DNA of 64,000 nt from a virus, in the IMG/VR virus record IMGVR_UViG_3300027816_000057. The stretch is one strand, 5' to 3'. The notes under the pieces are model-generated. The model was not told where the DNA came from. It did not search any database and was given only the letters and a program-made list of their open reading frames with translations. Within the stretch, counting starts at the first letter, position 1; each line of letters starts with the position of its first letter. This document shows positions 5,798 through 58,018 of this stretch, piece by piece. The position numbers and the translations under genes were made by a program.

Positions 5798-6005
5798 TGA
5801 TAATGTTAAAATTTATTCAGATAAAGAAAGAATTGAATATCTTAGAAAATATTTAATAAACGCTAATAAAGCATATTATCAAGATGGCGAACCTGTAATG
5901 ACAGATCAAATGTATGATAGACTATTAAAAGAATTAGAAAAACTAGAACTAAAGAATCCTGAATTATACGATCCTAATTCCCCGACTAAAAAAGTAGGAC
6001 ACTAA
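5790..6005 (+). CDS. stand-alone NAD+-dependent DNA ligase domain Ia (Nlig-Ia)
   Basis: YY.DGEPVMTD.MYDRLLKEL..LE..NPEL..PNSPT..VG matches the LigA N-terminus; stop immediately after. Confidence 0.85.
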   Translation: MDNDNVKIYSDKERIEYLRKYLINANKAYYQDGEPVMTDQMYDRLLKELEKLELKNPELYDPNSPTKKVGH

Positions 6006-6829
6006 TGATACATCCAAAAATAAGAGATAAAAACTTCGCTCATATAAAAAACGCCGGTTATTATGACAATAAAATTGTGTCAAAATATATTGATTGGTAT
6101 AGAGGAGACGAATATCGAGATACCTGCTTTTTTACAGATATATGTCTAACTGAAGTAGATTCCATTCAAGCTAAAACAAAAGTAGCATGGCTTTTAGAGC
6201 CTCCTGCTATTATTGGCGGAAGTTATCAATATATTTTACAAAATCATCATAAATTTGATTATATATTAAGCTTTGTACGAGACTTAGATAAGTATATTCC
6301 AAAAGAAAAACTACTCTTTTATCCGATGGGCGGCTGTTGGATAGAGCCAGAAATCCGACAAATATATTCAAAGACCGCCAAACTCTCTATGATCGCCAGT
6401 AATAAAACTTGGACGGTCGGACATCGTTTGAGACACGAAATAGCGGCAAGATATCCGGGTCAAATAGATTTATTTGGGCGTGGTTACAAAGAAATACTGT
6501 CTAAAAGTGAAGCTCTAAAAAATCATATGTATTCTATTTGCGTTATGAATTCACAAATAGATGATTATTTTACCGATGTTGTAATAGACGCTTTTGCTTG
6601 CGGCACTATCCCTATTTTTTGGGGCACTAATAATCTTGGAAAATATTTTAACTCAAAAGGATTTTATAAGTTTAATACACTAGAAGAATTAGACGTAATT
6701 TTAGATTCTATTTCCGAAGCGGATTATTATTCTAAAATGGAATATATTATGGATAATTTTCAAAGAGTGCAAAACTTTAACACTCCAGAAGATTATATGT
6801 ACGAGAACTATCAACATTTATTTTTATGA
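6005..6829 (+). CDS. GT10 (alpha-1,3-fucosyltransferase-like) glycosyltransferase
   Basis: IASNK, GHRLR, IDLFGRG, MYSICVMNS..DDYFT, GTIPIFWG. Confidence 0.7.
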   Translation: MIHPKIRDKNFAHIKNAGYYDNKIVSKYIDWYRGDEYRDTCFFTDICLTEVDSIQAKTKVAWLLEPPAIIGGSYQYILQNHHKFDYILSFVRDLDKYIPKEKLLFYPMGGCWIEPEIRQIYSKTAKLSMIASNKTWTVGHRLRHEIAARYPGQIDLFGRGYKEILSKSEALKNHMYSICVMNSQIDDYFTDVVIDAFACGTIPIFWGTNNLGKYFNSKGFYKFNTLEELDVILDSISEADYYSKMEYIMDNFQRVQNFNTPEDYMYENYQHLFL

Positions 6830-7368
6830 AATATGAAATTGATACAATAGACGAGTATTTTAAAAATATATTAGACGGAATATGTTTTGGAATAAAACCT
6901 AGAAAAATTCTAGAAACTGGTATTAGATCAGGATTAAGTACATCCGTATTTTTAAAATACATTAATGATAATGGAACTTTAATATCTGTTGATCGAGATT
7001 CTAAAAGTCCTTTTTTGTTTAATTATCAACCAGTAAAAAACCATCAAATTATAATAAAAGATTCTTTAGACTTTTTATCAACTAGCGAAGATACTTTTGA
7101 TCTTATCTTTCTTGACGATTGGCATTCAAAAGATCATGTTTTAAAAGAAATAGAATTATGCGAAAACTTGATACATGAAAGATCGTTAATATTAATTCAT
7201 GATGCTATGTGGGGATGCATTGATCCAAAGTATAATTTTAGTAATCATAATCCTGAATTTGCTGATGGCGGCGTAGCTGCAGCTTTATTAGATTTAGACA
7301 GAAAAAAATGGGAATTCTGCACTATACCTTTTAGTCATGGAATAACAATATTAAGGAAAATACAATGA
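6826..7368 (+). CDS. class I SAM methyltransferase (Methyltransf_24-like)
   Basis: ILETGIRSGLST, FDLIFLDDWH, ILIHD. Confidence 0.8.
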   Translation: MKYEIDTIDEYFKNILDGICFGIKPRKILETGIRSGLSTSVFLKYINDNGTLISVDRDSKSPFLFNYQPVKNHQIIIKDSLDFLSTSEDTFDLIFLDDWHSKDHVLKEIELCENLIHERSLILIHDAMWGCIDPKYNFSNHNPEFADGGVAAALLDLDRKKWEFCTIPFSHGITILRKIQ

Positions 7369-8345
7369 ATTGTTTAGTAGCTGGCGGCGGTGGATTTATC
7401 GGAGGACATTTAGTAAAATCTTTAAAAGAAAGAGGCGATAGCGTTACTGTTGTAGATATTAAATCTATGAGTAATTGGTATCAACCGTTCTATGGTAATT
7501 CTAACATAAGAAATATAGACAACTGCGACTTAAAAAATCAAAATGTTTACGATAATATTTTTCGCGGAACTCGTTATGATATTATTTACAATTTAGCAGC
7601 GGATATGGGAGGAATGGGTTTTATCGAAAATAATAAAACCGCCTGTATGCTGTCGGTATTAATTAATACTAATTTATTAATGGCGGCAAAAACCTTTCAG
7701 GTTAAAAAGTTTCTCTTTTCATCTTCTGCTTGCGTTTACGCTCATAATAAACAAACCGATTCAACAAATCCCGGTCTAAAAGAAGAAGACGCTTATCCAG
7801 CAATGGCCGAAGATGGATACGGTTGGGAAAAATTGTTTAGCGAAAGAATGTGTAATCATTTTTATCAGGATCACGGATTAGAAATCACTGTTCCTCGTTA
7901 TCACAACGTTTTCGGAATTGACGGAACATATACAGGGGGAAGAGAAAAAGCTCCTGCAGCTATTTGTAGAAAAGTAGCTAACGCGGTATTAACCGGAAAG
8001 CACGAAATTGAGATTTGGGGCGACGGTGAACAAACCCGTTCTTTTATGTATGTAGACGATTGCATCCAAGGTATCCATAAATTAGTTGAATCAAACTATA
8101 GACAACCTATTAATCTCGGATCATCCGAAATGGTAAGTATTAATCAAATGGTTACTATGGTAGAAGAAATAGCTGGAGTCAAACTAAATCGTGTCTATAA
8201 ACTAGACGCACCCAAGGGTGTTCGCGGTAGAAACAGTGATAACACTTTGATTAAATCAGTATTAAACGGTTGGGAGCCATCTATTAAATTAAGAGACGGT
8301 TTAGAAAAAACCTACAAATGGATTTACGATCAATTAAAAGTATAA
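7365..8345 (+). CDS. GDP-mannose 3,5-epimerase-like NAD-dependent epimerase
   Basis: GGGGFIG, NLAADMGGMGFI, SSSACVY, YGWEKL, GGREKAPAAICRK and GVRGRNSDNTLI are characteristic of GME. Confidence 0.85.
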   Translation: MNCLVAGGGGFIGGHLVKSLKERGDSVTVVDIKSMSNWYQPFYGNSNIRNIDNCDLKNQNVYDNIFRGTRYDIIYNLAADMGGMGFIENNKTACMLSVLINTNLLMAAKTFQVKKFLFSSSACVYAHNKQTDSTNPGLKEEDAYPAMAEDGYGWEKLFSERMCNHFYQDHGLEITVPRYHNVFGIDGTYTGGREKAPAAICRKVANAVLTGKHEIEIWGDGEQTRSFMYVDDCIQGIHKLVESNYRQPINLGSSEMVSINQMVTMVEEIAGVKLNRVYKLDAPKGVRGRNSDNTLIKSVLNGWEPSIKLRDGLEKTYKWIYDQLKV

Positions 8346-8357
8346 TAAGGATATAAA

Positions 8358-9203
8358 ATGAAGTATTTAATTTTAGGATCAGAAGGACAGATAGGAAGTT
8401 CTCTATCTAAATATTTAACAGAATCTGGACATACGGTAAAAACTATTGATTATGTTAATAGTATTCATGAGGATTTAAGACTAAAAGATTCTACACTTCT
8501 TCATTCATATATGAACGAATGTGATTTTGTTTATTTTCTAGCTTTTGATGTTGGCGGAAGTAGATATCTTAAAAACTATCAATTTACTAAAGATTTTATT
8601 GATAATAATTTAGATATAATGCGTAATACATTTCAAATGCTAGATGAGCATAGTAAACCTTTTATTTTTACATCTAGCCAGATGTCTAATATGAATCATT
8701 CACCATACGGTGTTCTTAAAAGACTAGGAGAATTTTATACTGACGCCATAGGTGGAGTCAATGTAAAATTTTGGAATGTATTTGGAATAGAAAAAGATCG
8801 TGAAAAATCCCACGTTATTACCGATTTAATACTTAAGGGAATTAAAAATCAACGCATTGATCTTTTAACTGACGGAAAAGAAAAACGCCAAATGCTATAC
8901 GTTAAAGATTGTTGTCGTGCATTGTTTACATTAAGTCAAAAATACAATACCATAAAAGATAGAATTAATAAACCGGTATTGGATATAACTAATTTTAAAT
9001 GGAATACAATCGGAGAAATAGCTTATTTAATTTCTAAGCATATGAACAATATACCAGTTAATTTTAGTCATACATCAGACGATGTTCAAAAAGAAATATA
9101 TAATGAACCAAGTGCGGATATTTTAGAATATTGGCAACCGTTATTTAGTGTTGAAGATGGTATAAAAGAAATGGTAGATTATTATGTTAAGAGTCATTGG
9201 TAA
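8358..9203 (+). CDS. NAD-dependent epimerase/dehydratase (extended SDR)
   Basis: GSEGQIG Rossmann motif, YGVLK (YxxxK), NVFG, RQMLYVKD. Confidence 0.75.
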   Translation: MKYLILGSEGQIGSSLSKYLTESGHTVKTIDYVNSIHEDLRLKDSTLLHSYMNECDFVYFLAFDVGGSRYLKNYQFTKDFIDNNLDIMRNTFQMLDEHSKPFIFTSSQMSNMNHSPYGVLKRLGEFYTDAIGGVNVKFWNVFGIEKDREKSHVITDLILKGIKNQRIDLLTDGKEKRQMLYVKDCCRALFTLSQKYNTIKDRINKPVLDITNFKWNTIGEIAYLISKHMNNIPVNFSHTSDDVQKEIYNEPSADILEYWQPLFSVEDGIKEMVDYYVKSHW

Positions 9204-9831
9204 TAGTCACGCTGGAATTTTTTCTGGAAAACAGCAAAATTGGGCCACTTGGCCCGGTAAATGCATAGATACTATTGTAAATGTTAAATCATTTCAGCTA
9301 GGGCCAATTATAGCTTATAATTTTTACGAACATCATCTTCCGAAAGTATACGAAATTATCAACGCTGACCCCCCTTTAAAACATGATTGGTATTTATTTA
9401 CAGTAGGCGAAGTTGATTGTCGCTGGCACATACCTTTTCAGTCTGATAAGAAAAAAGTAAGATTTGAATCTGTTGTAGAGGAATGTTGTGACAGATATTT
9501 TAAAGCACTATTAGATTTAAAAAATAAAAAAATAAATGTTGCTGTATGGGGTGTACACCCGTCAACATCTTCCGGTCATAATGAAGATCCGGATAATCCT
9601 GTTTTTGGAGATTTCTTATTAAGAAACAGTATATCTGAATATTGGAATTCATATAGTGATTATTTATGTCGTTTGTACAAAATTCCGTTTATCTCAATAT
9701 ATTATGATTTATTAAATAATGATTTTACTAGAAAAGACGAGTATTTTCTAGATTATTGTCATTTATCTGAAAAAGCTTTACCTATTATTAAAGGAAAAAT
9801 TAATTCATGGATTCCAGAATTGCATCTATAA
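9184..9831 (+). CDS. SGNH/GDSL-like esterase or acyltransferase
   Basis: IGNSH block I, GEVDCR, C-terminal DYCHL (DxxH). Confidence 0.6.
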   Translation: MLRVIGNSHAGIFSGKQQNWATWPGKCIDTIVNVKSFQLGPIIAYNFYEHHLPKVYEIINADPPLKHDWYLFTVGEVDCRWHIPFQSDKKKVRFESVVEECCDRYFKALLDLKNKKINVAVWGVHPSTSSGHNEDPDNPVFGDFLLRNSISEYWNSYSDYLCRLYKIPFISIYYDLLNNDFTRKDEYFLDYCHLSEKALPIIKGKINSWIPELHL

Positions 9832-10535
9832 AAGAACATTTTTTAAACTGTTTTGAAGAACTTAATTACGAGTGGCTACACAAAGAACAAAAAATACAGC
9901 ATCCAATACATAACGGAAAACAAATAGTAACATATGCAGTATTACACAATTTAGTTAAGTTTCTTAAACCGAAAAAAATCCTAGAAATAGGCACTTGGGA
10001 ATATCATTCAGCGAATGTTATGGCTCTAGCCTCCGATTCGGTACAAAGAATAGATACTTTTGATATAAGAAGCGGTGGTTATAACGGAAATACAAATGCG
10101 GTTAAAAGATCAAATAAGATCGATAATTACGTTTGGCGACCATTTCACACTTCTTATGATTGTTGGAAATACGAAAACTCGGATTTAAAAGATTTCATTT
10201 ATATGAGTAATGGTCAAATTTTTGAATTTAATTTAGCTCAATTAAAATCGGTCTGTGGTTTTTACTCTGATCCTCCAGAGGACAAATATGATTTTATTTT
10301 TATTGACGGAGATCATTCATATAAAGGTTTAGAATTCGATTTATCTTTAGTTCATCATGTAGCATCAAAAAATGCAATTATAGTAATTGATAATATTCTT
10401 GATGAAAGACTGTCAGATGTTAATAAAATGTGGCAAAATATAGTAGAGACTAACAAATATCTAACATATGATTTTTCTGATTGGAATCAAAAAGAAAAAG
10501 ACAGAATCATAGAAATGGGTATTATTATTATATGA
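9807..10535 (+). CDS. class I SAM methyltransferase (Methyltransf_24-like)
   Basis: ILEIGTW, YDFIFIDGDHSY, IVIDN. Confidence 0.8.
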   Translation: MDSRIASIKEHFLNCFEELNYEWLHKEQKIQHPIHNGKQIVTYAVLHNLVKFLKPKKILEIGTWEYHSANVMALASDSVQRIDTFDIRSGGYNGNTNAVKRSNKIDNYVWRPFHTSYDCWKYENSDLKDFIYMSNGQIFEFNLAQLKSVCGFYSDPPEDKYDFIFIDGDHSYKGLEFDLSLVHHVASKNAIIVIDNILDERLSDVNKMWQNIVETNKYLTYDFSDWNQKEKDRIIEMGIIII

Positions 10536-11218
10536 TAACAAGAAGCGAAATTGTAGATAAATGTCCTAATCTAGTTTGCGTAGATCACGGAGAGGGTAAT
10601 GCTCATAAAGCATTAAAAATGAATAATCACGATCTTCCTATTTCTATAAGTGAAAAAGAAATACAGTATTTAATAAATTATATTCAAGATAATAAATTAA
10701 AATACGGTTTTGATTTAGCAACAGCTTTTGGTATTTCCGCACTAGCTTTAAGTCTAGGGGTGTTAAAAAATAATGGATATGTAATAAGCATGGACTGTTA
10801 TGCAGAAGAGAAAAACCAAAAAATGCCATACGGAGAATCGGAATTAAATTCTGATTGGCAAAACAGCGATGGTTATAAAACCGCGTCATATATAAAAAAT
10901 AAATTTGAATTAAATAATCTTTTTTTAGAAGCAGGGGTTAACCCAAAAGATACAGACAGTAAACTAAAAGTATTTACAGAAAATTATTCTAAAATAGATA
11001 TTGCGATTTTAGATTGTCCAAAAAATGACGAAGATTTTATAAACACTTGGAAAGTATTAATACAATATCTAGATGATAGATTTGCTGTTTTTGTACATGA
11101 TACGCACGCCTTTCGTGGATCAGCTAAAGAATTTTTGGAAAAAGAATACGGTTTAACGTGGCGTAATGTCATGCCTGAAGAAAGATATCCGTTTGTTGTT
11201 ATAGAAAAAAATATATGA
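10532..11218 (+). CDS. class I SAM methyltransferase
   Basis: FDLATAFGISA, IDIAILD, VFVHD; probable start 10532 (ATGA overlap). Confidence 0.7.
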   Translation: MITRSEIVDKCPNLVCVDHGEGNAHKALKMNNHDLPISISEKEIQYLINYIQDNKLKYGFDLATAFGISALALSLGVLKNNGYVISMDCYAEEKNQKMPYGESELNSDWQNSDGYKTASYIKNKFELNNLFLEAGVNPKDTDSKLKVFTENYSKIDIAILDCPKNDEDFINTWKVLIQYLDDRFAVFVHDTHAFRGSAKEFLEKEYGLTWRNVMPEERYPFVVIEKNI

Positions 11219-11832
11219 AATGGACAATAGGAATTGTTTTTGGACCAAACTATCCTCTTTATAGAAATACTATCATAGAAAGTATCAAGCAAAATTTTGA
11301 CGGAGACAATTGCCAGATTATCGAAATAGGAAAAGTCAACTCAATAATACCTCCAACTTTTATTGATGATCTTTTAATTAATTTTGACGACGATGATAAA
11401 CCGGCGTGGATAACTAAAAAAAAGAATTTAGTAGCTCAAAACGCCAAATATGAAAACTTATGTATAATGCACGATTATATCATACTTAATGATAATTGGC
11501 TAAATGGATTTAAAGATTTTTACGATTGGGATGTTTGTATGAATCCAATCTACACAATCGATAATTTAAGATTTAGAGATTGGGTAACTTGGGAACCCGT
11601 CACTTTTGTAGACTATAAAGACCAGTCTAAGACGCAAGATATGTATGTTAGCGGCTCCTATTTTTGCGTTAAAAAACAATTTTTACTAGACAATCCTTTA
11701 GACGAGACTAAAAGATGGGGTGAAAGCGAAGATGTAGAATGGTCATTAAGATGTAGAAAAAAGTGGAATTATAAATGTAATTCAAATTCTAGTGTTAGAT
11801 TACTAAAATGGAAGGACCGCTATCCAATATGA
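11215..11832 (+). CDS. glycosyltransferase family 2-like
   Basis: WITKKKN, CIMHDY, SGSYF, WGESEDVEWS.R. Confidence 0.7.
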   Translation: MKWTIGIVFGPNYPLYRNTIIESIKQNFDGDNCQIIEIGKVNSIIPPTFIDDLLINFDDDDKPAWITKKKNLVAQNAKYENLCIMHDYIILNDNWLNGFKDFYDWDVCMNPIYTIDNLRFRDWVTWEPVTFVDYKDQSKTQDMYVSGSYFCVKKQFLLDNPLDETKRWGESEDVEWSLRCRKKWNYKCNSNSSVRLLKWKDRYPI

Positions 11833-12515
11833 GATTATATCACGCTCTTTTTCTTACGGTAGTATTATCTGTTTTATTTTGTTTTAGCCTTTTTTCTTTA
11901 GGTGTGTATGGTCCACACAATCAAAAAGAGAATAGTATAGAATATGTTGGTTTTTTGGAAAATACTAAAACTGGTTTTATAGGAACAGCTACTGCAGTAG
12001 GACCAAATACTATTATAAGTTGCCACCATCTTAATATAAATTTAGATGAAAATTTAAGATATTTTTATAACAATAGTGGATCAAAAATTATAGGAATAAG
12101 AAGATATCCTGAATTAGATTTAATTGTAATAACAACCGAAAAAAATATACCTTATCGAAAAATCGATAAAAACATTGTTTTAGAAAAAGATTTAAATTTT
12201 GTCGGTTACGGTGCTGGTGTAACCGGAACAATGAAAGAAAAGGGAGAGATTTCAATCTTATGGCGTACTGGAAAAATAAATTATTTTAATTCTAATATTT
12301 ACAATATAGAAAATGATACTATATCTTTTAAATTAAACAAACCAGAAGATGGCATGATACTATACGGAGATTCTGGCGGATGTATTGTTGTTAACGGTAG
12401 TCCGGTTGGTATGTTTCAATCATTTGCTAAATCTCAAGATTCGGACGGCAATCATAAATATACTGGATACGCTTTAGACTTAAGAAAATATTACGATTTA
12501 ATATATGGAAAATAA
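11829..12515 (+). CDS. secreted or membrane-anchored trypsin-like serine protease
   Basis: Hydrophobic N-terminus; triad motifs ISCHH, ELDL, GDSGG. Confidence 0.7.
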   Translation: MRLYHALFLTVVLSVLFCFSLFSLGVYGPHNQKENSIEYVGFLENTKTGFIGTATAVGPNTIISCHHLNINLDENLRYFYNNSGSKIIGIRRYPELDLIVITTEKNIPYRKIDKNIVLEKDLNFVGYGAGVTGTMKEKGEISILWRTGKINYFNSNIYNIENDTISFKLNKPEDGMILYGDSGGCIVVNGSPVGMFQSFAKSQDSDGNHKYTGYALDLRKYYDLIYGK

Positions 12516-13173
12516 TAAAATAACTTTCGTTATTAGAGGAAGATATGAAGAACAATTTAAATTATGCTATAATCACATTAAACAATTTTATCCAGAAAGT
12601 AAAATTATTCTTTCTAGCTGGATTGATCAAATACAATCATATTTATCTTGCGGTCTTGAATTTGACCAAATTGTTTTAGATACCGATCCAAAAAATATTA
12701 ACAGACAATCTCTAGCATCTTTTAATGGTATAAAAAACGCAAAGACCGAATACGTTTGCGTTTTAAGACCAGATATTTTGCTATTAAATCAACTACCTAT
12801 ACCCAAGAGCGACAGCATACTTGTTTCTGATTGTTACACTATTAATCCTTTTACAAATCATGAAAAACTCATGTTTCATGTATCGGATTGGTTGTATTTT
12901 GGTAAAAAATATCAACTAGCTTCTTTATTTAGTCACGCCCTTAATCCAACGGAATATAAATGTAGACCAGAACAATTTCCAATTTTAAATTGGCTAAATA
13001 TCACTGATTGGAAAGACGACCATGAATTTTCTATTGAGATACAAAGAAAATATAATAATATGTTATTCAATTATTTTGAAATAATAAACGCGAACGAACC
13101 TAATACATTTATAATGGCTAAATATCCATATGTTAAAGCGGATGGACAGCACTTTTTAAGAGAAATAAAATGA
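12505..13173 (+). CDS. WavE-like polysaccharide synthesis protein
   Basis: ITFVIRG, IILSSW, NINRQ, LRPD, FHVSDWLYFG, PEQ. Confidence 0.7.
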   Translation: MENNKITFVIRGRYEEQFKLCYNHIKQFYPESKIILSSWIDQIQSYLSCGLEFDQIVLDTDPKNINRQSLASFNGIKNAKTEYVCVLRPDILLLNQLPIPKSDSILVSDCYTINPFTNHEKLMFHVSDWLYFGKKYQLASLFSHALNPTEYKCRPEQFPILNWLNITDWKDDHEFSIEIQRKYNNMLFNYFEIINANEPNTFIMAKYPYVKADGQHFLREIK

Positions 13174-13778
13174 TAAAAGCGGTATTTTTTGATTTAGATG
13201 GCGTTTTAGTGGATATGTGTGAGCTTCATAAAAACGCTCTTAATAGAGCATTACAAGAAATAGAAGGTTTCGTTATTAGCGAAGCTGATCATTATTCTAT
13301 TTATAACGGTCTTCCAACTCTACAAAAATTAAAAAAGATGGTTCACAACAATATAATTCAAGAAGATAATGTTAAAAAAATTAATCAATTGAAACAATTG
13401 TATACCGAACATTATATTAATGAATATATTAAACCTGATTTTAATAAAACCGAACTGTTGAGAAAATTAAAACTTGAAGACAAAGTTATAGCGTGTGTAA
13501 CAAATAGTACTCGATCAACGGCTATTATGATGTTAAAACATGCTAAATTATGGAATGATATTGATTTTCTAATAGCTAACGATGATACCACTAATCCTAA
13601 GCCGTCGCCTGATCCTTATATCTTAGCTTGGAATAAAAGTAAATTAGAAAAGAAAGAAATTGTAGTATTTGAGGATAATGCTTATGGTATACAATCCGCC
13701 GAATCAGCAGGATTAAACTGTGTTCCCGTGTCTGATTATTCGGCAGTCAACTACGATTTTGTAAGAAAATACCTATGA
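13170..13778 (+). CDS. HAD-family phosphatase
   Basis: FDLDGVLVD, VTNS, KPSPDPY, VFEDN..GI.SA. Confidence 0.85.
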   Translation: MIKAVFFDLDGVLVDMCELHKNALNRALQEIEGFVISEADHYSIYNGLPTLQKLKKMVHNNIIQEDNVKKINQLKQLYTEHYINEYIKPDFNKTELLRKLKLEDKVIACVTNSTRSTAIMMLKHAKLWNDIDFLIANDDTTNPKPSPDPYILAWNKSKLEKKEIVVFEDNAYGIQSAESAGLNCVPVSDYSAVNYDFVRKYL

Positions 13779-14557
13779 ATATAATCATACCAGCAGCCGG
13801 AAAAGGTCAAAGATTTATAGACGCAGGCTTTAAGACGCCTAAGCCTTTTATAGAACCACTAGGTAATCCATTCCATAGTAATTTAAACTTATTGGAAATG
13901 GCAATTATTTCTTGCTGCGATCTTTCAAGCATTAAATTCCATATTATAGTAAATAAAGATCATAAAAGCTATATAGAAAATTTAAATACTGCGGAAAAAT
14001 TCTCTAATTATCATAATATAGATAATTTAGATATTAATTATATTTACGTTGACCAATTAACAAGCGGTGCAGCAGAAACCTGTTTAAAAGCAAAAAACTT
14101 TATCAATAACGACGATCCTCTACTTATAATCAATTCTGATCAATTTATAGACGATGGATTTTGGTTAAACAGACTAATTATTAATAGCAATTTTAAAAAA
14201 GCTGACGGTTCTATTGCCTGTTTTCCAAACAATCATCCTAAATGGTCTTATGTTAAAATCCAAGACGGATTAATAACTCAGGTAAAAGAAAAAGAACTTA
14301 TTTCCGAATTTGCTACTGTTGGTGCATACTATTGGAAAAACGGTAGTGATTTTGTGTGGTCTGCTGAAGAAATGATTAATAAAAATATCAGAGTAAATAA
14401 TGAATTTTATGTAGCACCATCTTATAATGAATTGATAATAAAAGGTAAAAAAATAATACCATTCTTTATTAATAATTTTTGGCCTCTAGGAACCCCGGAA
14501 GATTTGAGAAAATTTGAGGAAGTGCATGACGAACGTAAAAATTTTCAATTTGAGTGA
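13775..14557 (+). CDS. sugar-phosphate nucleotidyltransferase
   Basis: IPAAGKGQRF...PKPFI, TSGAAET, NSDQ, NNEFYVAP, LGTPEDL. Confidence 0.85.
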   Translation: MNIIIPAAGKGQRFIDAGFKTPKPFIEPLGNPFHSNLNLLEMAIISCCDLSSIKFHIIVNKDHKSYIENLNTAEKFSNYHNIDNLDINYIYVDQLTSGAAETCLKAKNFINNDDPLLIINSDQFIDDGFWLNRLIINSNFKKADGSIACFPNNHPKWSYVKIQDGLITQVKEKELISEFATVGAYYWKNGSDFVWSAEEMINKNIRVNNEFYVAPSYNELIIKGKKIIPFFINNFWPLGTPEDLRKFEEVHDERKNFQFE

Positions 14558-44366: not shown

Positions 44367-46421
44367 CTATAATCGATCAACCAACTGAGAGGTTACAATT
44401 CTCATTTTTTTGCCATTTGTCGTGATATAGGCGGGTTGATTGGTGCCACTATTACTTTTAGTATTTCGAGTAGCACCAATAGCAGAGTAGTTTATGTGAT
44501 TTGACAATTCATTATGCATAACTCGAATACCATAATTAGCCAATAATATAGAAGTAAATCGGTCTTTTTTGAGTTTTTCTTTAGTATTATCATTAGAAAT
44601 TAATGATATTTTAGGAACATCCCATCTTTCTTGCCCGCCGCCGGTTTCAGTTCTTTTAATACAAATAGTCTCTTGTTTAGCACTTTCTATTTCAAGATAG
44701 CAATCTTCAAGAGATTCGTATTTTCTTTTATAGTTGACGTTATCCATTTGTGCTACAGCTACAGAATCAAATTCTGGAAATAAAAATCTTCTATCTTCTA
44801 AATCTTTCTTTAAACCATAATGAGATTCTTTTCTCCAGTCAGAATTTTGGAAATTAATCATAGTTAAAATATGAAGTCCCGGCATATGAATAAAGTTTTC
44901 ATCGTCTTTATCGTATATCGGTAAATCTCCCGACTCCATTTTATCAGGATCGTGTAAACCTTCTTTAAGGGAAATACCTCCACCGCCAGCATCACAAATA
45001 ATAGATTCAATATTAAATCGGCGAATTAACGATCTTATATGTTTAATTATAAAAGTATTATAATCTTTAATAGATTCGTCTATAATCCCGTCATTTTTCA
45101 TTTGATTAAATTTCTTTCTATTAGTAGACCAAGTATATACCAAAACTCGATAATTACCATGATCTTCAACTATAGAAATTGCAAAATTATCATCTTCTGA
45201 GGCGGGGTCGATACCCATAACGTATTTAAATTCTTTTTCGCCTGATATTTTAGCACTATGTCTAATAACCTGACCCAAACCTTTAATTGGGCAAGTGCAA
45301 TCAAATAATAATCTGGCTGGATAAAATCCGTCTGAATCTGACGGAAAAACGCATCCGTATTCTTGCTGGAAAATTTGTTTAACCATTGTTGCCTTACCTT
45401 GTTCTAGAATGTCTTGATCTAACATTCCTTTTGGAGCAAGAGTATAAGGCAGTCTCATAATAGCATACTGACTAGTATCTAATTTAGTAATATCTAATTC
45501 TAGTTCCGGATAATTTTGATCGATAAACCTTTGATCGCCACCGGATTCGATAATAGCTTTGTATCTTTTAAAATACTTATAAAAAGATCCAAATTGAAAG
45601 GTAGCGGTTCCTTGAATTATAATTTGGTTTCCGCCTAAACTGGTTTGTGTAGGTATTTTAGGATTTAATATTTGATTATCGTCAGTAATACCTAATTTAC
45701 GCATTTCATCTGTTCTATATGCGTTTTTAATATTTTGAATAAAATTAGTAGTCTTAACTGCAGCGAAACCTCGAATAACTGTTTCAAAAACCTCAGTACT
45801 AATACTGCCGAATTCTTCAGCACATATTATTTCAGCACGTTCACCACGGATAGTTTCGCCGTCACCAAGCGGTAGGAATTTAATTACACTTTCGCCACAA
45901 TGCCAATATGCATTAGTTACGCCTCTTTTTGGTGCATTTTTCTTTCCTACTATATCTTGAAGAACAGGTGCGTTATTCCATATATTTGTTATATAGTTAA
46001 AAACTATCAAAGCTTGACGAAAAGCGGCACCGACAACTGCTATTCTAATTCCCGGATTTAACAACGCTCGGATCATTAAATACCAAGCGGTAGTAAAACT
46101 TTTAGCATAACCACGAGACGCAATCAACATAGGAAATTGTTTTTTCCATAACATTTGCACAATAGCCATATGTTCTGGAGTGGTATCTAAATTAAGTATT
46201 TCTTTAGCTATAAAATGTAGGTAATTTGGATCACGCATGAATTGAACCAAAGAATCTATATAGGTGTTTTTATTATAAAATTCCGGTTTAAAAAACGGAT
46301 TCATGACCGACATCTGCGAAACATCTCCTAATTGGAGATAAGCTAAATCTAAAGTTTCGCTATTAATACGTTTATGATCGCTATGTATAGAAAGCAGGTT
46401 ATCGGTAATTTTATTACTCAT
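44367..46421 (-). CDS. terL: terminase large subunit
   Basis: Walker A SRGYAKS, IRGER, Walker B-like ICAEEF, FQQEYG..F, RNase H GIDPA and KDRF. Confidence 0.85.
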   Translation of the reverse strand: MSNKITDNLLSIHSDHKRINSETLDLAYLQLGDVSQMSVMNPFFKPEFYNKNTYIDSLVQFMRDPNYLHFIAKEILNLDTTPEHMAIVQMLWKKQFPMLIASRGYAKSFTTAWYLMIRALLNPGIRIAVVGAAFRQALIVFNYITNIWNNAPVLQDIVGKKNAPKRGVTNAYWHCGESVIKFLPLGDGETIRGERAEIICAEEFGSISTEVFETVIRGFAAVKTTNFIQNIKNAYRTDEMRKLGITDDNQILNPKIPTQTSLGGNQIIIQGTATFQFGSFYKYFKRYKAIIESGGDQRFIDQNYPELELDITKLDTSQYAIMRLPYTLAPKGMLDQDILEQGKATMVKQIFQQEYGCVFPSDSDGFYPARLLFDCTCPIKGLGQVIRHSAKISGEKEFKYVMGIDPASEDDNFAISIVEDHGNYRVLVYTWSTNRKKFNQMKNDGIIDESIKDYNTFIIKHIRSLIRRFNIESIICDAGGGGISLKEGLHDPDKMESGDLPIYDKDDENFIHMPGLHILTMINFQNSDWRKESHYGLKKDLEDRRFLFPEFDSVAVAQMDNVNYKRKYESLEDCYLEIESAKQETICIKRTETGGGQERWDVPKISLISNDNTKEKLKKDRFTSILLANYGIRVMHNELSNHINYSAIGATRNTKSNSGTNQPAYITTNGKKMRIVTSQLVDRL

Positions 46422-46863: not shown

Positions 46864-47185
46864 TTTTCTTGCGATCTTTTAATAAAACCTTTTTCAAAAA
46901 AACCACTTCAAATCTTTTTTCTTTTCCGTATGTTTTCTGGTGGCATTTTTTACAAAGAGTTATACCATTATACACGTTGTATCTTAAATGTGGATCGTCG
47001 GCCCATTTTTTGATATGATGTATCTGTAAATCTTCTTTAGCCTGACATTTATTAAAACCTTGGCAAGTATGATCGTCTCTTTCTAAAACTTGATTTCTCC
47101 AGTTTTTATATTTAGCAGACCCAATATCTCGTTCTAATTGACGCAATCTTTTGCTGGTTGTATATTTAATTTTTGGTATAAACAT
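46850..47185 (-). CDS. HNH endonuclease (terminase-associated)
   Basis: WR..VLERD..TCQ, LQIHHI, NGITLC..CH. Confidence 0.85.
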   Translation of the reverse strand: MFIPKIKYTTSKRLRQLERDIGSAKYKNWRNQVLERDDHTCQGFNKCQAKEDLQIHHIKKWADDPHLRYNVYNGITLCKKCHQKTYGKEKRFEVVFLKKVLLKDRKKNVGD

Positions 47186-48209
47186 ATTTATTTTGCTCTG
47201 TATTAATCATCCATTTTACTACTTCGGTAAAACTCATTCCCGCTTCCCACCCTAATATCTTATACGCTTTTTTTGAATTACCAACTAGATTAACTGGCTC
47301 AATAGGCCGATATAAGTCTTTTTCTATATATATAATTTGATTACCGGTTTTTTTATCTATCCCTTTTGTATTTATACCATGACCGACAAATTCTAATTCA
47401 ATTCCAGCTTCTCGAAAAGCTAATAAACATAATTCTTTAATGGAATACTGTTTTCCGGTAGAAAGTATATAATCATCTGGTTTATCTTCTTGTAAAGACA
47501 GATACATACCTTCGACATAAGACGGAACATCGCCCCAATCTCTTAAACTATCTAAATTACCAAGAGGAAGTTGAGTTTTAATTAAACCTAAAGAATATTT
47601 TACAGCGTATTCTACAATTTTTTTAGTAACAAAACGGTTAGATCGTCTTGGTGAATCGTGACCATAAGCAATAATATTGCTAGCGAATATACCATAAGCC
47701 TGTCTATAAATTTTTACCATATTATAAGCAAAAAGTTTAGATGCTCCATACGGTGAGACAGGAATCATATGAGTATCTTCATTTTGCGGGCTATCTTTTG
47801 ATCCAGCAAACATATCAGATGTTCCTATTTGACAAAATTTAGTTAAAGGAGATATTTTTCGGATTAATTCCAGTATATTTAATACTGACTTTCCATTAAC
47901 ATCTAGTGTCGCGTCAGGCTGTGAAAAAGACATTCCCGGATGACTAAAGGCTGCTAAATTATAAAATTCATCTGGTTTTAATTCTAATAAATTAAATAAA
48001 GTTGATTCATCGGTTATATCACCTTTTATAATTGATATCTTATCACGATCTAAATTACAATCATTGATAAAATCAGTAGAACCGTCATTTGATGATTCTC
48101 TTACTAAACCATAAACATGATAACCTTTTTCTATTAACAAAGAAGCTAAATAGGGGCCGCTTTGACCGTTAATCCCCGTTATTACTGCTGTCTTCCCGCG
48201 ATTTAGCAT
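47166..48209 (-). CDS. gmd: GDP-mannose 4,6-dehydratase
   Basis: ITGINGQSG.YL, YNLAA.SH, SPYGASK, FVTKKI, LGNLDSLRDWG, YRP.E...LVG. Confidence 0.85.
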   Translation of the reverse strand: MLNRGKTAVITGINGQSGPYLASLLIEKGYHVYGLVRESSNDGSTDFINDCNLDRDKISIIKGDITDESTLFNLLELKPDEFYNLAAFSHPGMSFSQPDATLDVNGKSVLNILELIRKISPLTKFCQIGTSDMFAGSKDSPQNEDTHMIPVSPYGASKLFAYNMVKIYRQAYGIFASNIIAYGHDSPRRSNRFVTKKIVEYAVKYSLGLIKTQLPLGNLDSLRDWGDVPSYVEGMYLSLQEDKPDDYILSTGKQYSIKELCLLAFREAGIELEFVGHGINTKGIDKKTGNQIIYIEKDLYRPIEPVNLVGNSKKAYKILGWEAGMSFTEVVKWMINTEQNKYVYTKN

Positions 48210-50793: not shown

Positions 50794-51059
50794 AAACTGA
50801 ATTTAAATTACCAACTAATTTAGAAAATTATTTTTCCGCATGGAACGAAGGATATAAACTAGGTATGAGAGATGCATATAAAAATGAAGAACCGGCTAAT
50901 AATTTCTTAGATGAAAAAGACGGGTTTATGGGCGGTTATATACTAGGTTATTCTAATCGTATAGAAAAATCACAAGGTCTAGATAGAGCCAGAAGTTATC
51001 AAAGTGAATTTATTAATAATTGTAAAAATGGCGTGGTTAGATATAATAAAGCGAATTAA
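50778..51059 (+). CDS. hypothetical protein
   Basis: GY..G repeats; stop codon overlaps the tRNA-Gly 5' end. Confidence 0.5.
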   Translation: MGSQLETEFKLPTNLENYFSAWNEGYKLGMRDAYKNEEPANNFLDEKDGFMGGYILGYSNRIEKSQGLDRARSYQSEFINNCKNGVVRYNKAN

Positions 51060-51123
51060 GCGTAAAAGGTGACGTATTTGATTTCCAATCAAAAGAAGGA
51101 GGGTTCGATTCCCCCAATTCGCA
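51051..51123 (+). tRNA. tRNA-Gly(TCC), slightly non-canonical
   Basis: Acceptor GCGAATT/AATTCGC, anticodon arm TTTGA-TTTCCAA-TCAAA, TTCGA T-loop; A at position 8 and an A:C mismatch in the T stem; no CCA. Confidence 0.75.
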
Positions 51124-51127
51124 TTTT

Positions 51128-51203
51128 GCTAGCATAGCTCCAACCGGCTTAGAGCGTCTGCTTGTCACGCAGAAGGATATGGGTTCGAATCCCATTGTTA
51201 GCG
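51128..51203 (+). tRNA. tRNA-Asp(GTC)
   Basis: GCTAGCA/TGTTAGC acceptor, GCTC/GAGC D stem, TCTGC-TTGTCAC-GCAGA, ATGGG-TTCGAAT-CCCAT, G73. Confidence 0.92.
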
Positions 51204-51218
51204 TTTGAGGAAAATTGT

Positions 51219-51557: not shown

Positions 51558-51631
51558 CAGAGTGTAGGATAATTTGGTATTCCGTCTGGTTTGGGGCCAG
51601 AAAACTGCAGGTTCAAATCCTGTCACTCTGA
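51558..51631 (+). tRNA. tRNA-Pro(TGG)
   Basis: CAGAGTG/CACTCTG acceptor, TCTGG-TTTGGGG-CCAGA, GCAGG-TTCAAAT-CCTGT, A73. Confidence 0.92.
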
Positions 51632-51639
51632 TTTAAATT

Positions 51640-51740
51640 AATCTAGTAGCTCAGTTGGCTAGAGCAGAGTACCCTTATGGTAAAGGACCAAAACACCGGG
51701 ATTTATACTCAGGCCGTTGGTTCGAGTCCAACCTAGATTA
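51640..51740 (+). tRNA. tRNA with a 27-nt anticodon-loop insertion (possible intron; Lys-CTT if spliced at 37/38)
   Basis: Perfect AATCTAG/CTAGATT, GCTC/GAGC, GAGTA/TACTC and GTTGG-TTCGAGT-CCAAC stems, with 34 nt instead of 7 in the anticodon loop. Confidence 0.75.
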
Positions 51741-51742
51741 TT

Positions 51743-51922
51743 ATGAATAAATATTATTTTCGCTATTCCATAGATTACCAAGATCATTGGGCTGAATATG
51801 TAAAAATTATAACAGCTTCGGATGTAGAACAAGCTGAAATTCAAATAGCAAAAATATTAAGAGATAGACCTTTTAAAATACATCAAATATATAAAATGGA
51901 GTTAATAGAAGATAATGGATAA
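51743..51922 (+). CDS. hypothetical protein (59 aa, not in the ORF track)
   Basis: MNKYYFRYSIDYQ...IEDNG fills the gap between the tRNA and the ATP-grasp gene. Confidence 0.5.
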   Translation: MNKYYFRYSIDYQDHWAEYVKIITASDVEQAEIQIAKILRDRPFKIHQIYKMELIEDNG

Positions 51923-52721
51923 ACCTCTTTTATTAATTGAAAATTACGACGAAGCCACAGAAAAACTAATTCAATTAGCAAAAGAAAAAAGTTTTCCGGT
52001 CGCTATATGTAAACAAGATAAGGTGTTTCAATATGTAGTGGATAACTATAAGCCGGAACTTTCTGATTATAAAACCTATTTTTTCGGCACTCTTTTTGGA
52101 TATCGACAAATATCTAAAAATTGTATAGTTAATGATGTTGATTTTAGAAAATACGATTGTTCATCATATTATAATCATTTTAATTGGCATTTATTAAATG
52201 AAAAATATGTCATGCTTCCATTGAACGATATCATTCGTCAATACGATGATCTATTATCATATTTCAGATGTAATAAATTATTTATAAGACCCGATTCTTC
52301 ACAAAAACCTTTTACCGGCTTTGTAACCGATAAAAACTATAAGAACGAAATCAATTATCATCTTCAACGTCTTAATTCAAATCCAATGTGTCTTATAGCA
52401 CCCGTTAAAAACATTCTAGAAGAATACCGATTAATAATAAATAAAAAATCCGTCCTTACCCGATGCCAATATATTAAAAACGGCGAGATTGATATAAAAA
52501 AAGACGTACCGGACGATATAATAAATCACGTTGAAAAAATTGTTTTATCGCAAGTCTCTTGGTCGCCGGATGATTTATATGTACTAGACGTATGCCGGGT
52601 AGAAACAGATGGTCCTGAATCTGATATTAAAGTAGTGGAAATAAACGCATTGTCAACAAGCGGTCTTTATGAATGCGATTTGTCAAAGATATTAGATGCA
52701 GTAGAGAAAAATCATGAATGA
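51915..52721 (+). CDS. ATP-grasp domain protein (DUF4343/R2K-like)
   Basis: LFIRP....K.FTG, EEYR, YVLDV, VVEIN...SGLY. Confidence 0.75.
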   Translation: MDKPLLLIENYDEATEKLIQLAKEKSFPVAICKQDKVFQYVVDNYKPELSDYKTYFFGTLFGYRQISKNCIVNDVDFRKYDCSSYYNHFNWHLLNEKYVMLPLNDIIRQYDDLLSYFRCNKLFIRPDSSQKPFTGFVTDKNYKNEINYHLQRLNSNPMCLIAPVKNILEEYRLIINKKSVLTRCQYIKNGEIDIKKDVPDDIINHVEKIVLSQVSWSPDDLYVLDVCRVETDGPESDIKVVEINALSTSGLYECDLSKILDAVEKNHE

Positions 52722-53184
52722 GAAGATTAAAACATTAGGTGATTTTAAAAATTTAAATGAAACACCGATGGTAACACCAAAAGACAGAGTAAAACTGATA
52801 GAAGAAGCTAAGAAAATAGAGACTAGGCCCGTTAAAAAATTCGATTCTGGTCTTTTAGAACCTCAAATATATGTCAATATTGTTCATATAAACAATCTTT
52901 TATTGGATAATTTGGATGAAAAAATTCTAAAACAATCATATAAAATCTATCGTTATGATGAAAACGAAGAGGCGTCACAATATATAGAGTGTTGTAAATC
53001 TATATGGGAAAAACTTTTAAAAGATTACGCATCTTTAGGATGGAATATTAAATATATTTTTACAGATTATGGGGACGGATTATATATAAGAATACAATTT
53101 TCATTAAATAAGTTTAATTTATTTGATAAAATATATGAATGGATATCTTCTGGACTAATATGGAAACATATTAATGGAAAATGA
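52714..53184 (+). CDS. hypothetical protein
   Basis: Overlapping operonic ORF. Confidence 0.55.
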   Translation: MNEKIKTLGDFKNLNETPMVTPKDRVKLIEEAKKIETRPVKKFDSGLLEPQIYVNIVHINNLLLDNLDEKILKQSYKIYRYDENEEASQYIECCKSIWEKLLKDYASLGWNIKYIFTDYGDGLYIRIQFSLNKFNLFDKIYEWISSGLIWKHINGK

Positions 53185-53692
53185 ATTAATATATACCGGC
53201 ATCGGATCACGATCAACTCCCGATCCTATCTTAAAAAAGATGGAAACTATTGGCAGAATCTTAGCTAATAGAGGATGGACTTTAAGAAGCGGAGCGGCTG
53301 ACGGTGCCGATTCAGCTTTTGAAAAGGGATGCGATCAAGTAACCGGACCAAAAGAAATTTATTTACCCGCCAGAAAATTTAATAACAGCCGGTCTATTTT
53401 ATATCACGTTGGAGAAGATGCTTTAGAATTAGCTTCTACAATTCATCCCGCTTGGGATAAATGTTCTTCTTTTGCTAAACTTTTACATGCCAGAAATTGT
53501 TATCAAGTATTAGGGAGAGATTTAAACGCTCCTTCGTTATTTGTTGTTTGTTGGACTGAAAACGGAGAAGCTCTTGGCGGCACCGCTACTGCTATTAATT
53601 TAGCCAAAAAACACAATATACCAGTTTTTAATTTATGCACTATGGATAGTATTAAACAACAAGTATTGGAAATAGAAAATGCTAATAAATAA
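53174..53692 (+). CDS. SLOG-superfamily (DprA/Smf-like) nucleotide-binding protein
   Basis: YTGIGSR.TP, LRSGAADGAD.AFE, HARN, GGTATA..LA....IPVFNL. Confidence 0.75.
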   Translation: MENELIYTGIGSRSTPDPILKKMETIGRILANRGWTLRSGAADGADSAFEKGCDQVTGPKEIYLPARKFNNSRSILYHVGEDALELASTIHPAWDKCSSFAKLLHARNCYQVLGRDLNAPSLFVVCWTENGEALGGTATAINLAKKHNIPVFNLCTMDSIKQQVLEIENANK

Positions 53693-54465: not shown

Positions 54466-55218
54466 ATGTCTAAGCATGTTATCGGAGATATCCACGGATG
54501 TTATTATACTCTATCTAAATTGATAGATAAAGTATTAGAACAAGACAAAAACCCGGAATTTATTTTTACCGGTGATTATATAGATCGTGGCCTTTATTCA
54601 AAATCCGTCATATCATTTTTATTAGATTTAGAAAAAAAATATAAATGCACTTTTTTACTAGGTAATCACGATGATGTTTTTAAATATTTACTAGGTCTGT
54701 CTCATGTCACTAATTTAGGTGATTATATTTTTGGAAAAGTTACTACTCAATCAATTTATGACTGGATGCGTGTTCACGGAATTAAACAAACAATAGATTC
54801 GTTTGGCATAGATAATTTAGAGATGTTGCCCGAGATAGACGATTATTATTTAGATTTCTTCCGTAAACTTGAAATAGGATATATAGACGATAAGTTTTTC
54901 GTATTCCACGGTTTTTATCCTAATCAAGAAGTTCCAAGAGATATCCGGTTTATCAAAGGTTCTCAAAAAGAGGAATTAATATGGGGGCGTTTTGACGAAC
55001 TTTTATCGAATTACAATAAATATTCTCAAAAGTGGGATAGAATAGGGATATTCGGACATACTCCAACTAGATATATCACTGGCAAAAACGAACCTCTAGT
55101 ATTGGATAAAATCGTAATGATAGACACAGAGGCTTATAGGGGTAGTTTTTTGACATCGTATAATACAGAAACCGGCCAGTTTATACAAGTACCAACGGAT
55201 AAAAGAGACATTTTATGA
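54466..55218 (+). CDS. metallophosphoesterase / Ser-Thr protein phosphatase (lambda NinI-like)
   Basis: GDIHG, GDYIDRG, GNHD, HG, FGHTP, IDT. Confidence 0.85.
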   Translation: MSKHVIGDIHGCYYTLSKLIDKVLEQDKNPEFIFTGDYIDRGLYSKSVISFLLDLEKKYKCTFLLGNHDDVFKYLLGLSHVTNLGDYIFGKVTTQSIYDWMRVHGIKQTIDSFGIDNLEMLPEIDDYYLDFFRKLEIGYIDDKFFVFHGFYPNQEVPRDIRFIKGSQKEELIWGRFDELLSNYNKYSQKWDRIGIFGHTPTRYITGKNEPLVLDKIVMIDTEAYRGSFLTSYNTETGQFIQVPTDKRDIL

Positions 55219-56430: not shown

Positions 56431-57600
56431 CAAAAGAAGAAGCAGTAAACTATATTCAAGAAACAAATCGTATGATAGAAGATTGTAGACGTAGACAAAG
56501 TTATATTAAAGAAATATGCCCTCACGACTGGAGATACGAATATGATCCGGCTGGAGGAACCGATAGCGGTTGTATTTGTATTATTTGTGATTGCTGGAAA
56601 AAGAATATATGAATATTTTTACTAAAATAAAAGATTGGTGGAAAACTCATTATAGATATTATGCTAAAGTAGTATCGGTGTCAGAAGTTCCATATTTTGC
56701 ATATAATGATTTCGCTAAACAATCTTGTATACGAAGAGATTATATCTATGAATTAAAAATAGTCAGGTATGATAAACATTCTAGTCAAGATTATCCTATA
56801 GGATCAGTTTTTCGAATAAAATTTATCGACGATCCTATTTTTGAAAGACCGGACGATTATAATAAAAAGCCTAAATTATTTGACAAAATTGTATATTACG
56901 ATTTAAAATATGCTGAAAGAATTGGTTAAAATTTTAATTTGGTAAAACAGGAGTTAATATGACGATAAGTATAATGTTTGTTATGTTTTTGTCTACTTTT
57001 TTTCTTTTAGTTTTAATGTATTTTTGTTTTACTATGGGAGTATATGCCGGTATAGATAAGGAATACAAGTATTCTCTACGAAAGAATCCAATAACAAAAG
57101 AAGAATTATGGAATCTAGACGTTACGATTGCGGAATTCATTTATCCAAGATTAAAAGAATTTAGAAATACTGCACACGGTATACCTGAAGAACATATAGA
57201 TGATATGATTTTTGCTTTTGAAACATATGTACAGCAAGGTTATCCTAAATCTATCAATACTAAAACTAGAGAGGGGCGTAGAATTAGACGCGGTATGTAT
57301 CTTTTTTATAAGAATTTTCCAGCTCTTTGGAATTAATTAGGGATTTATATGCCTCTTTATACAGCGTTATGTGAAGTAAATTGTGGTATGGACCCGGATG
57401 GTAATTTTGACATATTTGAACAATATGTAACTATAAATGCAAATGATCCTAGAGACTTTTTAGTCTTGTTAGAGGAAAAATGCGGCTATGGTTATAGCGT
57501 CAAAGAATTATATTCTAATCACAGAATTGAAATTATTCCTAGTGACATAAAAATTAAATGGGATAATAAGGTAATAAATGATAAAATTTCTAAAAATTAA
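56427..57600 (+). CDS. four hypothetical genes (56427-56612, 56609-56929, 56959-57336 with N-terminal TM, 57349-57600)
   Basis: Co-oriented, overlapping or RBS-preceded ORFs. Confidence 0.5.
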
Positions 57601-58018
57601 CGAGCCATACGGTTGTTTTTCAAACTTTTCTAGACATAGCGTAAAAACGGCAGACGGTAAGGTATGGCCTAGAAGCGAACATCTATATCAAGCGTTAAAA
57701 TTTAACGATGTAGCTGTCCAAGAAGGTATCCGTTCTATTGCGAATCCAAAAGAAGCAAAAGAATACGGTTATCAATTTAAAGATAAACTACGGCTAGAGT
57801 GGGAAGATGTCAAATATGGCACCATGCTATATGTATGCCGACTAAAATTACTTCAACACAACGATATAATGGACTGTCTGCTATCTACGGACGATCAAAT
57901 GATAGTAGAAAACAGTCTTTTTGATTCAACGTGGGGATGCGGTAAAGACGGTAAAGGATTGAATTTGCTAGGTAAAGTATGGGAAGAATTAAGATATGAA
58001 ATTACCAAAAATAATTAA
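57578..58018 (+). CDS. NADAR-family (YbiA-like) ADP-ribosyl hydrolase
   Basis: YGCFSNF, SEHLYQALKF, WE.VK...M, K..QH, E.S..D..WG.G..G.G.N.LG. Confidence 0.9.
   Translation: MIKFLKINEPYGCFSNFSRHSVKTADGKVWPRSEHLYQALKFNDVAVQEGIRSIANPKEAKEYGYQFKDKLRLEWEDVKYGTMLYVCRLKLLQHNDIMDCLLSTDDQMIVENSLFDSTWGCGKDGKGLNLLGKVWEELRYEITKNN

Follow-up and report, generated by a model that had tools for sequence, protein, structure and literature searches.

A phage-borne tRNA-shaped RNA with a conserved RAAGG-hairpin arm in place of the anticodon loop

The locus and its tRNA-shaped gene

The window, meaning the whole 64-kb stretch of DNA analysed here, is phage DNA with 31% G+C and densely packed short ORFs. No relatives of it were found among isolated phages at the DNA level, and its large terminase (44367-46421, minus strand) is only ~22% identical to the terminases of Bacillus and Microcystis phages. 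It also carries a D12 methyltransferase gene and nucleotide-sugar genes. A glycan and nucleotide-sugar set at 6005-14557 comprises a fucosyltransferase-like gene, two methyltransferases and three epimerase/dehydratase genes, together with WavE-like, HAD and nucleotidyl transferase genes, and a GDP-mannose 4,6-dehydratase is encoded at 47166-48209, on the strand opposite to these sugar genes.

The gene of interest (51640-51740, plus strand) is the fourth and last of a phage tRNA array. It is preceded on the same strand by tRNA-Gly(UCC) at 51051-51123, tRNA-Asp(GUC) at 51127-51204 and tRNA-Pro(UGG) at 51558-51631, each called by both ARAGORN and Rfam. A promoter scan placed a promoter-like site, a consensus match only, upstream of the array at 51020-51047. 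An R2K-clade ATP-grasp gene (51915-52721), predicted to encode a peptide ligase, begins 175 nt downstream of the tRNA-shaped gene. Further genes encode SLOG/DprA-like (53174-53692), calcineurin-like phosphoesterase, or metallophosphatase (54466-55218), and NADAR-domain (57578-58018) proteins, which together with the R2K gene look like a small set of candidates for host takeover or counter-defence.

Direct reading of the sequence gives a four-arm cloverleaf of 101 nt in which every stem is perfectly paired, and all its elements lie on the plus strand. The acceptor stem forms 7/7 pairs (AATCTAG at 51640-51646 with CTAGATT at 51733-51739) and is followed by a discriminator A at 51740; CCA is not encoded in this copy. 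The D arm (51649-51665) is canonical, with G18 and G19, and consists of GCTC (51649-51652), AGTTGGCTA and GAGC (51662-51665). The variable loop AGGCC and the T arm together span 51711-51732, the T stem pairing 5/5 (GTTGG at 51716-51720 with CCAAC at 51728-51732) around the T loop TTCGAGT. At the position of the anticodon stem, a 5-bp outer stem (GAGTA at 51667-51671 with TACTC at 51706-51710) encloses 34 nt (51672-51705), exactly as the sequence-only reading had described. The Rfam tRNA model RF00005 matches the gene over its full length with 51.1 bits (gathering score 29; E = 4.9e-8 for the whole window) and places a 33-nt insertion in the anticodon loop, while ARAGORN makes no call for it.

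The enclosed nucleotides form an ordered arm. Adjacent to the outer stem, helix P pairs CCC (51672-51674) with GGG (51698-51700), a pairing that covaries in the family described below, and above it lies a lone pair between U 51676 and A 51695. Hairpin H (51678-51690) has the form U-GGU/AAAGG/ACC-A. On its 3' side runs a conserved single-stranded segment, AAAC-ACC (51691-51697), which in the alignment columns corresponds to the family consensus NAAY..GCY. An A/U-rich 3' bulge, AUUUA (51701-51705; family consensus RUAAA), closes the arm towards the body and is likely a hinge. The minimum-free-energy fold of the window RNA reproduces both the hairpin TGGT-AAAGG-ACCA and the CCC/GGG pairing, although the sequence as a whole folds with an unremarkable energy (z = -0.6). 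These two pairings had been proposed earlier from this single copy, and they are now supported by covariation in 54 relatives as well as by the fold. Within the window, the only antisense target of the module is the module itself.

A family with a constrained arm

Scanning IMG/VR, JGI metagenomes and GTDB genomes for sequence patterns, and then applying a covariance model, yielded a family of 59 distinct sequences at 76 loci on phage and metagenome contigs, the window included, so that the architecture is shared with 75 independent public contigs besides the window. The covariance model, R1, was built from 17 short members, and the window copy, being one of these seeds, scores 91.2 bits; it has every element of the family, with U-A at the lone pair. 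Members score between 56 and 115 bits, whereas ordinary tRNAs from these carrier loci do not exceed 53.5 bits, and a few unrelated insert-bearing tRNA-like genes from other fetched loci reach up to 58.7 bits, overlapping the lowest members. Each of the nine carrier genomes searched with R1 held one clear copy. In prokaryotes the family is essentially absent, with one match in one genome each of 185,579 species. That sole match (locus L251, 309-426) comes from a contig of 1.3 kb that was assigned to a Candidatus Saccharibacteria MAG but may be a mis-binned phage fragment.

Judged by their gene content, the carrier phages, which are uncultured, are unrelated to one another, because no protein of the window has a homologue in the other carrier loci and no neighbouring protein gene is conserved beside the RNA across clades; the neighbours that do recur (DUF7275/DUF7277, GP88 and SprT-like) are lineage-specific. 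Members sit in arrays of up to 32 tRNAs in which all 20 amino acids are already covered. In no case did the module occur without a tRNA frame around it; the remaining pattern matches were coding sequence. Among ordinary tRNAs of the fetched loci, only 2 of 752 distinct sequences show the GCC-GNUGG signature of variable loop and T stem, so the frame is family-specific and not copied from one isoacceptor. A search of Rfam at a permissive threshold (E up to 1) with the window region and nine relatives returned only tRNA, plus noise. Our literature search found no description of a tRNA-framed RAAGG-hairpin RNA. A published set of 10,006 candidate structured RNAs includes tRNA-like models, none of which could be matched to this family (PMC10690425).

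Members of the family keep a normal class I tRNA body (acceptor, D and T arms, variable loop) and replace the anticodon loop with a conserved, irregular helical arm. Read from the body outwards, this arm comprises an outer stem of 2-5 bp, the 3' bulge RUAAA, helix P (3-5 bp), an internal 1x2 loop in which U faces C-Y, the lone C-G pair, a junction that is flanked by a conserved A on its 5' side and by AAY on its 3' side, and a 4-bp hairpin, N-GGY-RAAGG-RCC-N', capped by the RAAGG pentaloop. Long forms add a variable, optional hairpin (0 to ~77 nt) at the junction, which turns it into a three-way junction. The stem at the anticodon position reaches 5 bp in only 5 of 53 members and has only two Watson-Crick pairs in most; the typical outer stem is G-C/C-G or G-C/G-C, and its second pair covaries (C-G 27, G-C 8).

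The arm is maintained by compensatory substitutions in helix P, the lone pair and hairpin H. In the 54-sequence alignment, which was fitted to the model structure, 96% of the cells expected to pair do so, against 75% in shuffles, none of 500 shuffles reaching the observed value; slid controls were 30-48% paired. Helix P changes on both sides at 5/5 model pairs, is 95.6% paired and exceeds all 500 shuffles, with variants such as CCUCC/GGAGG, CACCC/GGGUG, CUGC/GCAG and CCC/GGG. The lone pair is C-G in 49 sequences, U-A in 2, U-G in 2 and unpaired in 1, and the two U-A cases, the window and locus L259, belong to different clades, so that the window itself is a compensated variant. The third pair of hairpin H is U-A in 48, C-G in 4 and U-G in 1, with GGC..GCC among the variants, while its flanking pair is C-G in 25, U-A in 10, A-U in 3 and unpaired in 15. 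Its loop reads AAAGG in 41 and GAAGG in 12. In the tRNA body, the acceptor stem covaries at 6 of 7 pairs and the D stem is 97% paired.

The constancy of individual letters has to be read with the search in mind. The scans demanded GG..AAGG..CC and/or GCCGNTGGTTC, and part of the constancy of these letters was therefore imposed by the search, as it was for GCC and the T arm. A scan without the T-arm constraint nevertheless still returned NNGCC variable loops, and the T stems covary (GUCGG/CCGAC, GUGGG/CCCAC).

These patterns bear directly on the suggestion that the gene is a dead tRNA with a random or mobile insertion, or an assembly artefact. The missing ARAGORN call and the ordinary fold energy of the whole sequence would suit such an origin, yet the same design recurs with compensatory changes in the 75 independent contigs, the stems are all intact and the window copy holds the compensated U-A pair. 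A one-off insertion or assembly artefact, named beforehand as something that might undo the observation, is thereby excluded, and a decayed gene has a negligible probability. Covariation of the insert among homologues had been proposed as a check, and the compensated pairs of helix P, the lone pair and hairpin H supply it.

Several known motifs were compared with the arm and set aside. A pseudoknot between the RAAGG loop and a CUUC/CCUC/CCUU stretch on its 5' side is ambiguous in register and covaries weakly. Compared by eye, neither a K-turn, a sarcin-ricin loop, a tetraloop receptor, a Shine-Dalgarno or anti-Shine-Dalgarno mimic, a T-box UGGN:NCCA mimic nor a loop-loop kissing contact with a Lys or Arg anticodon fits all clades.

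Splicing and decoding

The sequence-only reading had considered a tRNA-Lys(CUU) interrupted by an intron that an unaccounted splicing route removes. In that account a phage or host endonuclease would excise the short intron and an RNA ligase would reseal the halves. The insert does sit at the canonical tRNA intron site, helix P is reminiscent of the helix that anticodon and intron form in eukaryal pre-tRNAs, the 3' bulge lies directly against the stem in the manner of a 3' splice site, and RNA ligase genes occur in 12 of 14 carrier contigs. Archaeal and eukaryal pre-tRNAs with introns at 37/38 likewise have extra sequence in the anticodon arm, a helix between loop and insert, and a bulge on the 3' side next to the stem.

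The likeness does not extend to the product of excision. With the stem set at the canonical register, every single excision leaving 7 nt was tried in the five members that have a 5-bp stem, the window included, and none gave a 7-nt loop with U33 and a purine at 37. In the window, excising 51678-51704 leaves CC-CUU-AA, which places C33 at the proposed junction. The anticodons implied in relatives vary (CUU, CUC, GCU and others) and all lack U33, so the Lys(CUU) identity proposed for the window copy does not hold across the family. Most members, moreover, have no anticodon stem from which exons could rebuild a loop, and in the long forms the optional hairpin splits the supposed anticodon from the rest.

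The arm itself also departs from a splicing substrate. Whereas archaeal and eukaryal introns present a 3-nt bulge, a 4-bp helix and a second 3-nt bulge, the family has a helix of 3-5 bp followed by a 1x2 loop; no bulge-helix-bulge was found in the arm, which has one 3' bulge of 4-5 nt and no matching 5' bulge. On this point the earlier view that the insert is not a strict bulge-helix-bulge was correct. The would-be intron is, in addition, the most conserved part of the gene, and the residues of the 'exon' loop belong to the conserved module, whereas tRNA introns are normally not the most conserved part of their genes. The carriers are phages of bacteria. A search for endonuclease and RNA ligase genes had been recommended, and none turned up among the ~50 ORFs scanned in the 64-kb window, which is part of a genome; the ligase is also common in control phages. 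A spliced tRNA is accordingly very improbable.

Self-splicing fares no better. Group I introns of bacterial and phage tRNAs (tRNA-Leu UAA, fMet, Arg, Ile) share the anticodon-loop position and a bacterial-type tRNA gene, but they exceed 200 nt and contain a catalytic core (P3-P9). The insert of the window, at 27-34 nt, gave no match to a group I model or to any intron family at E up to 1. To our knowledge, this length is far below that of any self-splicing intron.

The shortest arms superficially offer an anticodon (U-CAU, U-UAU in the window, or U-CAC just 5' of the hairpin). This candidate was rejected because its last base is the covarying flank of hairpin H and because long forms place a hairpin there. 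The window copy combines the minimal arm with a full outer stem, and this explains its resemblance to an interrupted tRNA.

Compared with a canonical class I elongator tRNA (RF00005), the family shares the 7-bp acceptor stem, the D arm with G18 and G19, the 5-nt variable loop, the T arm with TTCRA, the location in tRNA arrays and, in part of its members, an encoded CCA. It differs in lacking the 7-nt anticodon loop, U33 and R37, in place of which stands an irregular helix of 34 to ~111 nt, and in that the anticodon stem is cut to 2 bp in most members. The RNA is almost certainly unable to decode, because it has no anticodon loop and its arm is ~10 bp too long. We therefore assign the gene, with a probability of about 0.9, to the non-decoding RAAGG-hairpin family of tRNA-framed RNAs, and the earlier alternative of an unspliced tRNA mimic fits the evidence as to what the RNA is.

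Maturation, partners and possible roles

CCA follows the discriminator directly in 15 of 53 genes, where chance alone would give 1 in 64, which suggests that the RNA probably matures like a tRNA. It would be transcribed together with the neighbouring tRNAs, cut out by RNase P and 3' processing enzymes with its CCA end kept or added, and folded into an L shape as stable as that of a tRNA. The distal arm, that is, the hairpin and the NAAY..GCY strand, could then serve as a recognition surface for a protein or RNA partner, with the tRNA body acting as a scaffold for maturation and stability or allowing the RNA to occupy a tRNA-binding factor. Our best guess is thus a stable tRNA mimic that displays a binding arm. 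The complete statement, namely a non-decoding, tRNA-shaped RNA with tRNA-like maturation and a binding role for its arm, is in our judgement somewhat better than an even bet.

Whether the RNA might be charged is a separate matter. Discriminators are T in 26, A in 17, C in 8 and G in 2 members, and acceptor stems vary widely, which indicates no shared synthetase identity; charging by one synthetase is unlikely on this comparison. The RNA could nonetheless be pictured as a chargeable carrier that delivers an amino acid to a non-ribosomal acceptor or has a special role at the ribosome, with the arm blocking decoding. The intact tRNA body, the canonical elbow nucleotides, the encoded CCA of those 15 genes and the nearby R2K peptide-ligase gene of the window all speak for this possibility. 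Set against it are the divergent acceptor stems and discriminators, which provide no common identity set, the absence of a G3:U70 pair and of a long variable arm, and the lack of a transferase gene conserved beside the RNA, the R2K gene itself having no homologue in the other carrier loci. We consider the carrier function unlikely.

The tRNA mimic with a binding arm has its nearest functional analogue in YrlA and the other bacterial Y RNAs (RF02553; Chen et al. 2014, PMC4201824). These are likewise non-decoding mimics of the tRNA body, handled by tRNA enzymes, equipped with a separate protein-binding module and present in phages too. In YrlA, however, the Ro/Rsr-binding stem is built from the 5' and 3' ends and the acceptor-like stem is a closed one, whereas the ends of the present family form a normal acceptor stem. 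The Rsr-binding motif of YrlA, GNCGAAN0-1G, lies near the 5' end in the stem formed by the RNA termini (PMC4201824); it is absent from the conserved module of the family, and the Rfam YrlA model gives only 19-26 bits against a gathering score of 69. A TROVE (Ro60/Rsr) protein occurs in one of four carrier genomes and is missing from a 98% complete one. It is encoded at 133499-134218 of the 183-kb contig G003, the contig of locus L254, which may carry a true Y RNA as well.

Two other kinds of RNA resemble the family in general design. The species 1 and 2 RNAs of phage T4 are non-tRNA RNAs co-transcribed and matured with the phage tRNAs, and artificial 'tRNA scaffold' RNAs use a tRNA body to frame a foreign module at the anticodon arm.

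Genomic partners give a lead as to function. Four whole carrier contigs (134-277 kb) have only two protein clusters common to all, an RNA ligase (PF09414 with a PF21189 OB domain) and a dCMP deaminase, while a Thg1-like protein, a CCA-adding enzyme and RlaP are common to three of the four. PF09414 is present in 12 of 14 carrier contigs, including all four that are at least 90% complete, and in four contigs of 70-83 kb it lies 3.6-7.8 kb from the RNA; the Thg1-like gene is present in 5 of 14. Among controls, PF09414 occurs in 6 of 10 large tRNA-bearing phages and in none of five mid-size phages carrying other tRNA-framed RNAs. The pooled contrast (12/14 vs 6/15) gives a Fisher p of 0.02, with lineages that are not independent and controls chosen after the fact, and the association is weak, a lead and not a result. 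None of the ORFs of the 64-kb window, itself part of a genome, resembles the PF09414 ligase of the other carriers.

The tRNA genes of phages are commonly taken to be codon supplements, or to replace tRNAs cut by host defences, and the anticodon nucleases PrrC and PARIS AriB cut tRNA-Lys. It is conceivable that the RNA acts as a decoy for an anticodon nuclease of this kind, one of the candidate roles put forward in the sequence-only reading together with that of a synthetase or ribosome ligand. Phages do counter tRNA-cutting defences with their own variant tRNAs (PMC10264068, PMC11464382), and genes for tRNA repair (RNA ligase, Thg1-like, CCA-adding enzyme and RlaP) abound in the carrier phages. 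A decoy, though, would be expected to present the target anticodon loop, which is absent; the Lys reading is not conserved, and a different structure is strictly conserved instead, which speaks for some other recognition target. We regard the anticodon-nuclease decoy as an unlikely explanation.

The version of the binding-arm mimic that we prefer is one that would engage a tRNA-directed factor in the contest between phage and host over tRNA damage and repair. The RNA might work with the phage RNA ligase and the tRNA repair enzymes that nearly always accompany it, or it might sequester a host tRNA-directed defence enzyme. Such a role in tRNA damage, repair or anti-defence, with the conserved arm recruiting or trapping a specific factor, is put forward tentatively, and we would bet against it in this specific form. 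If it is true, the family would constitute a new class of RNA-based anti-defence or repair cofactor.

Unrelated phages keep a tRNA-shaped, almost certainly non-decoding RNA with a strongly constrained extra arm, and this constraint points to a function apart from codon reading. At ~100 nt the RNA is easily synthesised, and through it a new partner in translation control, RNA repair or anti-defence might come to light. In phage annotations these genes are either absent or wrongly labelled, since ARAGORN misses them and Rfam takes them for plain tRNA.

The scans also returned other tRNA-framed phage RNAs, at least three families plus another in locus L322, in which the anticodon arm is likewise replaced and which likewise sit in phage tRNA arrays, although their inserts are unrelated to the present one. 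The most conspicuous is a very abundant RNA of ~109 nt found at L004, L006, L012 and ~60 further loci, most of them from IMG/VR sample 3300045988. Its D and T arms are of the same type, and ~60 nt (GAGACCAAAGTCCGTCACAT...GCTGGTTGAAAGAC) stand in place of its anticodon and variable region. Its carriers are phage contigs of 40-75 kb, and PF09414 was found in 0/5 relatives tested. At least two more families use a tRNA frame with inserts of 38-70 nt (L018, L022, L026, L027 and others; L010, L021, L023, L034, L063, L096; and L322, at G001:59854-59965). One is characterised by a stem GCACG/CGTGC enclosing ~38 nt and the other by a shared ACAGCAA(A/T)TTA motif, and in the 277-kb phage G001 the RAAGG family and the ACAGCAA type occur together. 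A 159-nt tRNA match with an insert was also seen at L139:559-717.

The arrays themselves show some further peculiarities. At L043, ARAGORN predicts a tmRNA (3711-4068, tag ADEKFALAA*) within a phage array of 14 tRNAs that also holds a RAAGG-family member; calls for tRNA-Ala and tRNA-Thr overlap this prediction, and it may be spurious. In most contigs of the clade whose acceptor stem starts with AGAAGTG, tRNA-Thr(UGU) immediately precedes the mimic. At L213 (2400-2472), L238 (10831-10903) and L217 (4067-4139), ARAGORN instead lists a 'tRNA-???' whose anticodon has two bases, and the anticodon loop of these genes may accordingly be shortened.
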